This document shows positions 60,721 to 64,000 of a DNA stretch of 64,000 nucleotides, one piece after another. A program made the translations under genes and the position numbers. Each line of letters starts with the position of its first letter. The first letter of the stretch is position 1. Origin of the DNA: Escherichia coli (GTDB lineage Bacteria > Pseudomonadota > Gammaproteobacteria > Enterobacterales > Enterobacteriaceae); assembly GCF_044324785.1 (NCBI RefSeq), contig NZ_CP172127.1. One strand, written 5' to 3'. The notes under the pieces are model-generated. The model saw only the letters and a program-made list of their open reading frames with translations, was not told the DNA's origin and made no database searches.

Positions 60721-61884
60721 TTATCCAGCAATGTAATGCGGAACGAAACGTGAGGTGTCTTTGGTGATCAGCGTGTTATCTTCACGGATCCCCATTCCGC
60801 ACGCTTCATCATCGACAATCCAGCTACCGATGAGTGTGTAGCTATCGCCAAATCGCGGCAGAGGTTGAAACGCCTGGTAGATCATCGGTTCATCGGCGTA
60901 ATCACCATCAGCGTGGTCAACGACGTTATTCTGACCGTCGAAAATGGTGACGTTTCCGCCTTCGCGTGAGTAGATCGGTTTACGCACATAGCTTTCGCCA
61001 GCGGCAATCTGCGGTTTTTCGCCCTCAAACCAGGATGCAAGAAGGTTAGGATGACCAGGAAAGAAGCGCCAAAGCAGCGGCATTAACCCTTTGTTGCTCA
61101 AGATACTTTTCCATAACGGCTCCACCCATTGCTCGCGGCGCTTGCGCAGCAGCGGACCGTTATCGTCACGCATCATCCACTCCAGCGGATACAGCTTAAA
61201 TGCACGCTGGATGACATTATCATCAAGATCGGTCAGCACACCGCCGACGCCCAAACCGAGATCTTCAATGTAGATAAACCGCGACTCCTGCCCAGCCTGC
61301 TGGGCGCAGTCCTGCAAGTACAGCACGGTACTCCTGTCTTCATCGGTGTCCTGACAGCAGCAAAAATAAAACGGGTCCCGACTGTAAAGCTCACTAAAGC
61401 GCGAAATCAGGCGTTCCTGAATGGCATTGTACTGATCGGCATCACGCGGAATAATGCCGCTGCGCCGGGCATCTTCCAGCCACAGCCACTGGAAATAAGC
61501 CGATTCATACAACGAGGTTGGCGTATCGGCGTTGTACTCCAGCAGCTTCACCGGCGCATTGCCACACCAGGCAAAATCCATCCGGCCATACAGCGAAGGA
61601 TCGCGTGCGCGCCAGCTTTCGGCGATCACATCCCAGTACAACGGAGGGATCGCCAGTTGCGTCAGGATTTCTTCGTCTTTAACCACGCGATCCACCACCT
61701 CAAGGCACATCTGATGCAGTTCCGCAGTTGGTTTTTCGATCTGCTCTTCAATCTGGCGCAGGGTAAAGCGGTAAGCCCGACTCTCATCCCAATAGATTTC
61801 ATTGTCGATGATATGAAAGTCGAAACCGTTGTCAGCGGCGATCTGGTCCAGATCCCGCCGTACAGGAACGTTGTGTCTCAGCAT
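60721..61884 (-). CDS. yjfC: Glutathionylspermidine-synthase-like ATP-grasp protein
   Basis: 387 aa from internal ATG (MLRHNVPVRRDLDQIAADNGFDF...), GspS pre-ATP-grasp family. Confidence 0.8.
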   Translation of the reverse strand: MLRHNVPVRRDLDQIAADNGFDFHIIDNEIYWDESRAYRFTLRQIEEQIEKPTAELHQMCLEVVDRVVKDEEILTQLAIPPLYWDVIAESWRARDPSLYGRMDFAWCGNAPVKLLEYNADTPTSLYESAYFQWLWLEDARRSGIIPRDADQYNAIQERLISRFSELYSRDPFYFCCCQDTDEDRSTVLYLQDCAQQAGQESRFIYIEDLGLGVGGVLTDLDDNVIQRAFKLYPLEWMMRDDNGPLLRKRREQWVEPLWKSILSNKGLMPLLWRFFPGHPNLLASWFEGEKPQIAAGESYVRKPIYSREGGNVTIFDGQNNVVDHADGDYADEPMIYQAFQPLPRFGDSYTLIGSWIVDDEACGMGIREDNTLITKDTSRFVPHYIAG

Positions 61885-61886
61885 GA

Positions 61887-62525
61887 TTAGCCTCCCCAAT
61901 GCCCACGGGCGCTGGAAGAACGACCATAGCCGCCGCGAGAAACGGTTGACGCTTTTTTGGTGGTAAAGCCGCCCGAAGAATAAGACTCTTTTTTGCCAGA
62001 ACCGGAGCGCCAGGAGTAATCACCGGAAGTGTTGCGCCAGACGGGGCGCGAAGCAAAAGAGGAACCGCCGCTGTTATAAACAAACTGCTCATCGCGATCT
62101 TTACGAATAACCCGGCTTAACAAAAATCCAGAAACAACCGGGATCCAACTCTGTTCAACGTTGTCGTAGTAACAATTTTCATACTTAGACTGACAATTCT
62201 GCTGAGTCATATTCTTCGGAACATCGGCATAAAATGCCGCTTTGGCATTGTTCCAGCCACGCGCGCAAATGTCTGCATTATTACCGTCATCAATACAATC
62301 CTGCACTGTCGAGTAAAACGTTCCGTCGCCGTCGTTATCGACATCGCTACTTTCACTCCATCCTTTGACTATTAAAAAAGCAGCACCGCCCATTAGCGCC
62401 AACGTTAAGTATTTTTGTGCGTAGCGATTGCGGCGCGGCTCAAAAGGATTATGCGGTCTTCCAATGCGACTGATTGCCCCATGTCCGATATTTTTGTTAT
62501 TTCTGGATTTGCGTTTTCTGGCCAT
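61887..62525 (-). CDS. yjfM: DUF1190 protein, Gly/Ser-rich C-terminus
   Basis: 212 aa, basic N-terminus, one TM segment, C-terminal GGSSFASRP...SSARGHWGG low-complexity tail. Confidence 0.75.
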   Translation of the reverse strand: MARKRKSRNNKNIGHGAISRIGRPHNPFEPRRNRYAQKYLTLALMGGAAFLIVKGWSESSDVDNDGDGTFYSTVQDCIDDGNNADICARGWNNAKAAFYADVPKNMTQQNCQSKYENCYYDNVEQSWIPVVSGFLLSRVIRKDRDEQFVYNSGGSSFASRPVWRNTSGDYSWRSGSGKKESYSSGGFTTKKASTVSRGGYGRSSSARGHWGG

Positions 62526-62534
62526 GATCGTCCA

Positions 62535-62933
62535 TTACCATGTCATACAAGCTGCGTTAAAAATACCGCCAGCCAGCGCGGCGGTTCCCATAAACATTCC
62601 TGCTGCGGTATTGTGATTAATAATTTTTTCGCTTAATGAGGGCATATAAAGTCTGACACCAGCAAAAACGAGTAACTGAATCACCAGTGCAATCCCGCCC
62701 CAGGCGAAATAGTCTGGAATACTCACCGCATTGATTGCCGCACTGGATAACGGGATCACGTACCCCAACAATGTTCCGCTGAACGCCAGTGACGCCGCGG
62801 TATTATTGTTTTTGATTAACTGCCATTCGTTGTGCGGTGTAATTTTGGAGTAGATAAACAGAAAAATAATCACCATCGCCACGCCAATAAAAAAATAGGC
62901 GCTAAAGGCAAGAAGTGAATCCAGTATATGCAT
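62535..62933 (-). CDS. yjfL: DUF350 inner membrane protein
   Basis: 132 aa from internal ATG (MHILDSLLAFSAYFFIGVAMVIIFLFIYS...), 4 TM. Confidence 0.75.
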   Translation of the reverse strand: MHILDSLLAFSAYFFIGVAMVIIFLFIYSKITPHNEWQLIKNNNTAASLAFSGTLLGYVIPLSSAAINAVSIPDYFAWGGIALVIQLLVFAGVRLYMPSLSEKIINHNTAAGMFMGTAALAGGIFNAACMTW

Positions 62934-62950
62934 TGTAAACGTCCTTGTAA

Positions 62951-63610
62951 TTAACCAATAATATGAAGTGATGTCAGCGGGATATCGACACCCAGCGCGC
63001 GCGAAAATAACCACTCCGGCTCGCCGAGATCGTTAAAAGATTCCTCACCATTTAACAGCAAATATTCGTAAGTATCTCCGGTCACCTGCCGTTGGTAGCC
63101 CATGCTAAAATTATGGACCTCCCATTTGGCATGGTTTTGATTTTCTACTTTTTCCAGCATGTAGACAGGTTCGATATTTCCTGGTTCTTCGCTGTTAAAA
63201 AATCGCTGCCAGCGTTTTTCCTGCCAGTTTAAGGTCATTGCCCCCATCGCTTTGGCGTTGATCGCCTCGCGCCAGTGACTCTCTTTACTGATACCGTAGC
63301 TCTCTTCATAGACAAAGAGCTTGATATCATCAATGTCATCAATATCTTCGCCGCCGGTGGTATTGATTTGCAGAAATTCATCGCCCGAAGTGTAGTAGCG
63401 GAAAATCTGGCTACCGCCGCCCAGATCGATGCGGCTGACGGCGGCTACCGTAAATTCCTCACCCGGCAGCGCAATCAGCAATTCATCTTCCAGCAAACGA
63501 AACGCTAACGTGTCGAGCGTAAAGCCACTATTGAGATGCAGACCCAGCGGACCGCGAGCGATAGCAGGCTTATTATCCTTGCCAAACAGACGCTGGAAAA
63601 AACCAGACAT
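62951..63610 (-). CDS. yjfK: DUF2491 protein
   Basis: 219 aa soluble protein in yjfJ-yjfC cluster. Confidence 0.75.
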   Translation of the reverse strand: MSGFFQRLFGKDNKPAIARGPLGLHLNSGFTLDTLAFRLLEDELLIALPGEEFTVAAVSRIDLGGGSQIFRYYTSGDEFLQINTTGGEDIDDIDDIKLFVYEESYGISKESHWREAINAKAMGAMTLNWQEKRWQRFFNSEEPGNIEPVYMLEKVENQNHAKWEVHNFSMGYQRQVTGDTYEYLLLNGEESFNDLGEPEWLFSRALGVDIPLTSLHIIG

Positions 63611-63659
63611 ATTTTATCCTTAAAATAGTTGCCAGCCTTTTAGCGAGGCTGGCAAAAAA

Positions 63660-64000
63660 TTACTCGCCCTGTTGGCGTTGCAGTCTTGCTAATACATCCT
63701 GGGCGCTACTTTTATTGCTACCGCCAATTCCGGCTTCCGCCAGCTTTTCATCAAGATCGCGACCGTCTGCGACTTTTTCCAACTGTGCGGCAGCATCCAG
63801 GCGAGCCTGACGTTCGGCCTGACGCGTTTGCAGGCGTTTTAAGGATTCTGCCGCTGTCGAAACGCTGGAAGATGCGCCAACGGTAGAGGTCGTTACAGCC
63901 TGTTGTGCACGCTGCATGGCTTCAGTAGCTTTAACGACTTCCATTTGCTGCTCAAACTGAGCGATACGCTGCGCTGTCGCTGTAACTGCTTTTTCCACAC
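63660..64000 (-). CDS. yjfJ: PspA/IM30-family protein, C-terminal part only (gene continues beyond window end)
   Basis: Coiled-coil rich C-terminus (...QRIAQFEQQMEVVKATEAMQRAQQ...); frame open to window edge. Confidence 0.75.
   Translation of the reverse strand, partial: VEKAVTATAQRIAQFEQQMEVVKATEAMQRAQQAVTTSTVGASSSVSTAAESLKRLQTRQAERQARLDAAAQLEKVADGRDLDEKLAEAGIGGSNKSSAQDVLARLQRQQGE

Follow-up and report, generated by a model that had tools for sequence, protein, structure and literature searches.

What does the amide ligase YjfC of Escherichia coli modify, and why does its gene belong to the same cluster as a gene for a PspA-like protein? We addressed this question for the yjfJ-yjfK-yjfL-yjfM-yjfC genes at the end of a 64,000-nucleotide stretch of E. 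coli DNA (contig NZ_CP172127.1; hereafter, the window, with positions counted from its first letter). The region corresponds to the final five genes of the E. coli yjfIJKLMC cluster, an already known and partly characterized locus, and our interpretation of it is essentially that of published comparative genomics. What we add is a modular dissection of the cluster, evidence that this genome has apparently lost an ancestral channel gene, and a specific, testable candidate for the natural substrate of the ligase, namely, the C-terminal tail of YjfM. The explanation that we favor, a two-module envelope system in which this tail would be the substrate of YjfC, is tentative, and we put its probability at roughly 0.38. 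A first-pass annotation had described the genes as a membrane-stress module coupled to peptide or polyamine ligation, with no established function for the whole. Its core agrees with the literature, but it overlooked the published structures, the ligase activity, the operon type, the iModulon, and the tolC phenotype. On the matter of function it was right, since the physiological substrate of the ligase is still called unknown in a 2025 review (PMC11762307).

The YjfC ligase and its DUF1190 partner

YjfC matched the Protein Data Bank (PDB) entry 7UK6, titled "putative acid-amine ligase YjfC", at 1.8e-273 over residues 1-387, and also matched 7UK7. More distant PDB matches were to YgiC (7UK8, 3e-130), trypanothione synthetase (1.6e-38), and GspSA (4.9e-33), and PF03738 was precomputed on all YjfC homologues. 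By these sequence matches, YjfC is a member of the glutathionylspermidine synthetase family of ATP-grasp enzymes (PF03738). It shares with GspSA and trypanothione synthetase a synthetase fold that forms an amide from a glycine carboxylate and spermidine, but GspSA, at 619 aa, carries an N-terminal CHAP amidase domain that the 387-aa YjfC lacks. Against the model of the bifunctional GspSA equivalog (NF007801), YjfC scored 166 bits where the cut-off is 882, matching the C-terminal synthetase part only, which places it outside that equivalog. GspS-family enzymes phosphorylate a glycine carboxylate, in GspS that of the glycine of glutathione, and then hand it over to spermidine. YgiC and YjfC are reported to be without glutathionylspermidine synthetase activity (Sui 2012, as cited in PMC11762307 and PMC12506659) and to have peptide-spermidine ligase activity in vitro (Pederick 2023, as cited in PMC11762307 and PMC12568646).

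The first-pass annotation had proposed a check of co-occurrence across genomes. We ran it on 80 loci with YjfC relatives, all from distinct species, with open reading frames (ORFs) classified by profiles seeded from the E. coli proteins, and it bore out the association: the DUF1190 gene (yjfM in E. coli) clusters with the ligase gene in 77 of 79 ligase loci. Specifically, it lies directly upstream on the same strand at less than 150 nt (mostly ~8-20 nt) in 69 loci, 150-600 nt upstream in three more, and elsewhere in the cluster in five more; among the exceptions, one locus is cut by a contig end, and only one has no DUF1190 gene within 10 kb. Further, all three very divergent DUF1190 members (3/3) have a GSP_synth gene immediately downstream. 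The invariant core of the cluster is thus DUF1190 plus ligase, usually with DUF350 (YjfL), while YjfI, PspA, and DUF2491 are gained or lost together.

E. coli carries this pair a second time, as ygiB-ygiC downstream of tolC, where a DUF1190 gene again stands directly upstream of a gene for a GspS-like ATP-grasp ligase (L075 and ~25 further loci with the pair alone). YgiC is the protein solved as 7UK8, and the tail of YgiB ends ...SRSMGG. The two pairs differ in that ygiBC has no adjoining DUF350, PspA, DUF2491, or YjfI genes and in that YgiB has a canonical lipoprotein signal peptide in place of the long basic N-terminus of YjfM. A function of YgiBC parallel to that of YjfMC is reported in PMC11762307, which also cites a tolC growth defect that is worse without YgiBC and YjfMC (Dhamdhere and Zgurskaya 2010). 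In C. rodentium, ygiB is reported to be Cpx-regulated.

Public assemblies also hold YjfM-YjfC fusion ORFs of 548-601 aa (P0001-P0005, P0048, P0052; one cluster has 130 members). Judging from their sequences, these are probably frameshift variants or sequencing errors and not true domain fusions. We rejected P0001-P0005 as Rosetta-stone evidence because they are 98-99% identical to E. coli and their lengths fit a 1-nt indel at the 2-nt junction of the two genes (window positions 61884-61889).

The acid-free tail of YjfM as a candidate substrate

YjfM matched DUF1190 (PF06693) at 8e-18. Hydropathy and composition give it 12 Lys or Arg in its first 38 residues, one hydrophobic anchor, four conserved Cys, a DxDxDG-like loop, and a disordered Gly/Ser/Arg-rich tail, as the first-pass annotation had noticed for Gly and Ser. 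The C-terminal end reads …TVSRGGYGRSSSARGHWGG, with no variation in its final 21 residues (STVSRGGYGRSSSARGHWGG) among E. coli and Citrobacter.

The tail is conserved far beyond E. coli. A HMMER scan of 1.84 billion cluster representatives gave 129 DUF1190 relatives, and those of full length nearly all open with a lipoprotein-type signal peptide. The DUF1190 tail reads ...S-R-G-G-F-G, followed by 7-28 Ser, Gly, Ala, or Arg (mode 11) and then by [W/F/M]-G-G-COOH. A Gly-Gly (GG) end is present in 76 of the 79 ligase-linked DUF1190 proteins, where 3.3 would be expected if each tail were shuffled, with the endings WGG (34), MGG (18), and FGG (14). It is likewise present in 76 of 98 full-length representatives (5.0 expected upon shuffling) and also holds in family representatives below 50% identity. 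An RGGFG-like motif, R[GS]G[FYWVL]G, occurs in 78 of the 79 ligase-linked proteins. Asp and Glu together account for 1.2% of the last 25 residues when the sets of 79 and 98 are pooled, and both are absent from the tails of 56/79 ligase-linked proteins and 80/98 representatives, so that most tails offer no carboxylate but that of the C-terminus. Where tails are longer, ...SWGG units are repeated and GG is still kept at the very end. Given that the one conserved partner of the ligase has an acid-free, flexible tail with a GG end, and that its gene ends 2 nt before yjfC, this tail is the simplest candidate for the substrate.

In the mechanism that we propose, cytoplasmic YjfC would activate a peptide C-terminal carboxylate with ATP and amidate it with spermidine. 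Its natural acyl substrate would be the acid-free tail of YjfM, with RGGFG used for docking and the terminal glycine being the residue that is modified; the YjfM precursor would be modified before or during Sec export, and the product would be an envelope protein that bears a polycationic spermidine tag. YjfL would be the membrane partner of YjfM, as either an anchor or a conduit. Taken by itself, the step in which YjfC amidates the C-terminal glycine of YjfM with spermidine before export has the odds somewhat against it. The broader proposition is the more doubtful one: that DUF1190 proteins (YjfM and YgiB) may be dedicated ribosomal substrates, each spermidine-amidated on its C-terminal glycine by its partner ligase before export.

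ATP-grasp enzymes that act on protein C-termini include RimK, which acts on S6, and tubulin tyrosine ligase, and PafA ligates Pup, which is disordered and has a GG-containing end; like YjfC in our proposal, these enzymes activate the C-terminal carboxylate of a protein. They differ in that they add amino acids or attach to lysines, whereas the amine of YjfC is spermidine and its proposed substrate is an exported protein. As textbook precedents of ATP-dependent C-terminal ligation, they could also lend themselves, with the disordered tail and its GG end, to a reading of YjfM as a Pup-like or ubiquitin-like tag whose terminal glycine is joined to a macromolecular amine (a protein lysine, phosphatidylethanolamine, or peptidoglycan), and the rhomboid protease gene described below, closest to rhombosortase, may be counted in its favor. 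We consider such a tag quite improbable: no amine other than spermidine has been demonstrated as a substrate, the scaffold of the family is that of GspS, which binds spermidine, YjfM has no beta-grasp domain, and its tail lacks the transmembrane (TM) helix that defines GlyGly-CTERM signals. Closer to the chemistry that we propose, SUMO and ubiquitin have been found amidated with spermidine at a ...GG-COOH terminus, which shifts the mass by +127.15 Da (bioRxiv 10.1101/2024.12.05.626486). Full-text literature searches, whose coverage did not extend to Pederick 2023, found no earlier proposal of spermidinylation or of the DUF1190 C-terminus as a substrate.

The rhomboid-family intramembrane protease gene (PF01694, 8.6e-19) adjoins the cluster in ~15 marine loci and takes two positions there, either downstream of the ligase gene (L011, L012, L013, L017, L026, L030, L035, L041, L046, L067) or upstream of yjfI (L065, L070, L073, L078, L049). 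Its best NCBIfam match is rhombosortase, below the cut-off (42 vs 84 bits), and the window contains no rhomboid gene. GlyGly-CTERM/rhombosortase systems resemble the DUF1190 loci in having a Gly-Gly C-terminal feature, a glycine that (for DUF1190, in our proposal) becomes amide-linked to an amine-bearing moiety, and, in some loci, a rhomboid neighbor. We nevertheless rejected this reading of the DUF1190 tails, which stop at GG, with no TM helix or basic cluster after it.

Several observations weigh against the tail as substrate. First, a few ligase-adjacent DUF1190 proteins do not end in GG. Second, as a weak test, we used AlphaFold2 (AF2), without a control run and with a locus-paired alignment of 23 species, to model a fusion in which a Gly/Ser linker of 30 residues connects YjfC to the C-terminal 40 residues of YjfM. 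The predicted local distance difference test score (pLDDT) was ~30 in the linker and rose to 59-65 in TKKASTVSRGGYGRSS, with a beta strand at TVSR and the TVSRGGYG segment within the rise, but fell below 50 in the last eight residues (SARGHWGG), and the terminal GG was not predicted in the active site. Hence, the model gives modest support for docking of the motif and none for placement of the terminal carboxylate. Third, and most seriously, the signal peptides of DUF1190 proteins, whether of lipoprotein type or an anchor, and their four conserved Cys would place the mature tail in the periplasm, beyond the reach of an enzyme that depends on ATP in the cytoplasm. The precursor could be modified before export, since translocation reaches the C-terminus last, yet this topology objection keeps our confidence in the proposed mechanism near 0.35-0.4. 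Finally, the published "YjfJ iModulon" holds yjfIJKL and not yjfMC (PMC12492005), so the two modules of the cluster may not be co-regulated.

The topology objection also leaves room for a reading in which YjfC would make a soluble peptide-polyamine conjugate, analogous to glutathionylspermidine, which YjfL would export or flip and DUF1190 would bind or use in the periplasm, the tail being a binding or sorting element. With a cytoplasmic ligase and an exported DUF1190 protein, the topology problem disappears. Such a conjugate would also fit the in vitro activity, which came with free peptides (PMC11762307 and PMC12568646), the recurrence of DUF350 with polyamine enzymes in other operon types (PMC11237479), and the failure of AF2 to dock the terminal GG confidently. 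It would leave unexplained, however, why the sole carboxylate sits on the invariant Gly-Gly of a conserved acid-free tail and why DUF1190 and ligase are linked in loci that have only these two genes and no DUF350, and the cluster contains no peptide-making gene. We regard the soluble conjugate as only somewhat less likely, and retain the YjfM tail as the preferred substrate.

At its other end, YjfM is variable. The window allele has Trp at position 56 (FLIVKGW; codon 56 at 62358-62360) in place of the lipobox-like Cys of the K-12-like, O157, and avian pathogenic E. coli alleles (FFVLKGC). It thus fails the lipobox pattern [LVI][ASTVI][GAS]C for want of a Cys, and in the other E. coli alleles position -2 is an atypical Lys, whereas most other DUF1190 proteins carry a lipobox (64/79 ligase-linked; 70/98 representatives). 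The anchor-coding stretch (62320-62440, 121 nt) is 80-99% identical across genomes, at least 95% in only ~24% of them, and its polymorphism within E. coli greatly exceeds that of the whole cluster (95-99% identical).

Two modules, a lost channel gene, and transcription

The features of the region are collected in Table 1. All five genes lie on the minus strand, separated by gaps of 49 (yjfJ/yjfK), 17 (yjfK/yjfL), 9 (yjfL/yjfM), and 2 nt (yjfM/yjfC), in keeping with the five co-directional genes at 2-50 nt spacings first noted for this DNA. The domain calls made at that time (PspA/IM30, DUF2491, DUF350, DUF1190, and glutathionylspermidine-synthase-like) were confirmed by Pfam and PDB matches. 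The same five genes had been taken as the unit, and here the picture changes: they are present, but the unit begins with yjfI, had a K+ channel gene in its ancestral form, and falls into two modules. The window stops short of the first gene, yjfI, and of the promoter; in L001, an orthologous locus, the cluster starts with yjfI directly after rlmB. On the other side, aidB follows ~83 nt after yjfC.

Table 1. Coordinates of the yjfJ-yjfC genes and associated features in the window.
Feature	Position	Strand	Basis
yjfJ, 3' part only (last 112 codons and stop)	63660..64000, runs past the window end	-	ORF; annotated yjfJ in E. coli
Hairpin, GC-rich, 10 bp, with weak U tract, in the yjfJ-yjfK spacer	63629..63655	-	Terminator-like scan, fold
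yjfK, DUF2491 protein	62951..63610	-	Pfam match
yjfL, small DUF350 inner-membrane protein with 3-4 TM segments	62535..62933	-	Pfam match, hydropathy
yjfM, DUF1190 protein	61887..62525	-	Pfam match, hydropathy, composition, allele alignment
Codons of the conserved YjfM C-terminal tail, SRGGYGRSSSARGHWGG-COOH; proposed acyl substrate and recognition element of the ligase	61890..61940	-	GG-end and motif counts
yjfC, ATP-grasp amide ligase of the glutathionylspermidine-synthetase family, without amidase domain	60721..61884	-	PDB matches

We interpret the cluster as a core, yjfL-yjfM-yjfC, to which a second module, yjfI-yjfJ-(K+ channel, lost here)-yjfK, would have been recruited in a subset of Proteobacteria. 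The full order I-J-(channel)-K-L-M-C is found in ~33 loci, mainly from several gammaproteobacterial orders but including one Desulfurivibrionaceae metagenome-assembled genome (MAG; L049), and in the alphaproteobacterial Pseudovibrio the cluster holds together in a rearranged gene order. An L-M-C architecture occurs in ~15 loci, and M-C alone, the ygiBC type adjoining tolC, in ~25. The yjfL gene, present in 53 of 81 loci including those with L-M-C only, accompanies yjfM-yjfC even without yjfIJK. Within the Enterobacteriaceae, Citrobacter sp. R56 and one MAG (L003, L006) retain yjfLMC in its E. coli location, flanked by rlmB and aidB, without yjfI, yjfJ, and yjfK, which indicates that the PspA module was lost there as a block.

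An operon type of this composition is known from Ravi et al. (mSystems 2024; PMC11237479), who list a CesT/Tir-like YjfI and PspA dyad, a GspS-related ligase, a four-TM DUF350 protein, a lipoprotein with DUF1190, a DUF2491 protein, and a K+ channel, and propose PspA-based membrane dynamics linked to polyamines. All components of their third group (YjfI-like, PspA, ATP-grasp, DUF350, DUF1190, and DUF2491) are present in L001 and in the ~33 loci; in the window, yjfI lies past the end and the optional K+ channel gene is absent.

In the second module, the match of YjfJ to PF04012 (PspA_IM30) spans the whole model (positions 1-220 of 220; 5.9e-58) and was obtained with the complete orthologue L001:4641-5339, as the window holds the last 112 residues only. 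On this profile match, it is a full-length PspA/IM30 (ESCRT-III-like) family protein, and a homology model on Vipp1 has been published (PMC12492005). YjfK (PF10679, DUF2491, 3.5e-70) is acidic, beta-rich, and cytoplasmic, and its invariant residues R71, Y73, Q81, E153, R174, E182, and E189 suggest a binding or catalytic pocket. PDB sequence searches gave no solved-structure match for YjfK, YjfM, or YjfJ (phmmer for YjfJ), and the fold of YjfK had no match among solved structures. YjfL (PF03994, DUF350, 5.4e-34), which had been described as a four-TM protein, has three clear hydrophobic segments by hydropathy; the fourth is weaker. A C-terminal glycine is conserved in YjfK as well, most homologues ending -[IV]-[IV]-G (window 62951-62965; alignment A2). 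YjfK was rejected as a ligase substrate, as its C-terminus is a structured strand and yjfK is missing from the L-M-C and M-C loci.

The channel gene encodes a protein of ~350 aa (X7) with an Ion_trans_2 pore and a weak TrkA_N match and stands between yjfJ and yjfK in 27 of the 80 loci, as at L002:3070-4140, where its start and stop overlap the neighboring genes. It is present in only 19 of 5426 complete E. coli genomes. Comparison of the 49-nt window spacer (63611-63659) with the L002 gene found no residual homology. From these comparisons, the K+ channel gene is apparently ancestral to the cluster and lost from the window genome. A divergent metagenomic DUF1190-ligase locus (L082:1771-2160) has a small Ion_trans_2 channel gene directly after the ligase gene, a second, independent link of the pair to a K+-channel pore that adds weight to the channel connection.

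In the window, the site that the channel gene occupies in related genomes holds a hairpin (-18.5 kcal/mol, z = -2.1), which may be a partial terminator or an RNA-stabilizing hairpin. It is not a full stop, because the yjfIJKL iModulon spans it. Within the cluster, consensus matches to internal promoters and terminators were no more numerous than in shuffled sequences, and this, together with the gaps of 17, 9, and 2 nt, argues for co-transcription of yjfK, yjfL, yjfM, and yjfC. The absence of yjfMC from the iModulon bears on the independent transcription that the first-pass annotation had named as a refutation, without deciding the matter.

These observations bear on whether the cluster is instead two separate neighboring units, a PspA-type heat or envelope module, yjfIJKL, and a yjfMC pair that, as a paralogue of ygiBC, has a role of its own. 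The iModulon limited to yjfIJKL (PMC12492005), the hairpin, and the existence of M-C and L-M-C loci without I-J-K, including the two Enterobacteriaceae at rlmB/aidB, all point that way. Conversely, the I-J-(channel)-K-L-M-C order is kept in ~33 loci, the Pseudovibrio genes remain clustered through rearrangement, the small gaps are too short for promoters and promoter-like matches do not exceed those in shuffles, and yjfL, which sides with I-J-K by expression and with M-C by phylogeny, ties the halves together. We judge two separate units to be improbable and favor the single two-module system.

A gene of ~94 aa, probably for a helix-turn-helix protein, is divergent from yjfI in 17 loci (L011-L013, L017, L019, L022, L026, L030, L035, L041, L046, L065, L069, L070, L072, L073, L078). 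E. coli lacks this gene, whose product is a candidate local regulator.

Envelope stress and the place of the cluster among known systems

Physiological data exist for the PspA-containing half. A 1-nt promoter deletion turns on yjfIJKL, the YjfJ iModulon, in E. coli evolved at 45 C (PMC12492005), and plasmid-expressed yjfIJKL raises the growth rate at 42 C 1.21-fold (PMC11472167). In the two-module system, the second module would provide a PspA/ESCRT-III-type membrane-stabilizing scaffold and a CesT-like chaperone, and we infer for the whole a role in protecting the inner membrane and the proton motive force (PMF) under heat or efflux stress.

YjfJ has a PspA_IM30 protein and a link to heat or envelope stress in common with canonical Psp (pspF-pspABCDE) and with other PspA/IM30/Vipp1/LiaH systems, but the partners differ, being CesT-like YjfI, DUF2491, DUF350, DUF1190, and the ligase instead of PspB, PspC, and PspF. 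With yjfI, yjfK, yjfL, yjfM, and yjfC as the neighbors of its gene, YjfJ falls outside the canonical Psp regulon. Canonical Psp regulation was likewise rejected, as no sigma-54 site lies upstream of yjfI: no TGGCAC-N5-TTGC-like -24/-12 site was found in the rlmB-yjfI spacer, and matches in the genome region were at chance level. The bac cluster of Pseudomonas aeruginosa (BacA/PA3732-BacB/PA3731) shares the dyad of a YjfI-like (DUF2170) and a PspA-like protein, and YjfI matched the BacA model at 6.7e-27. As described in PMC10948618, the bac operon differs in having no module of polyamine ligase, DUF1190, and DUF350.

The "phage shock protein" name, together with the membrane and ion-channel components of related loci, might suggest an anti-phage defense or abortive-infection system built around the PspA-like protein. 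The genomic setting makes this very improbable. Of 5426 complete E. coli genomes, 5425 match the 4-kb stretch at 95-99% identity and have its genes annotated as yjfJ, yjfK, yjfL, yjfM, and yjfC. The cluster is part of the core genome, with a fixed position between rlmB and aidB, and does not form an island. A search with PADLOC was the basis for rejecting the defense reading outright, as it gave no matches for five proteins and only weak coiled-coil noise for YjfJ.

The cluster belongs to the E. coli "y-ome", the genes that nearly all strains carry but that lack an assigned function, and two published puzzles meet in it: the natural peptide of YgiC and YjfC, and the mechanism by which the operon of a PspA paralogue improves growth in heat. 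If the DUF1190 proteins are indeed substrates of their partner ligases, they would constitute a previously unrecognized class of polyamine-tagged envelope proteins, whose tethered polycation could affect membranes or block channels such as the K+ channel or the DUF350 protein; this would explain the link to PspA and to protection of the PMF. If confirmed, protein C-terminal spermidinylation would be a bacterial envelope modification that ties together polyamine metabolism, TolC-related stress, and PspA-type membrane protection.

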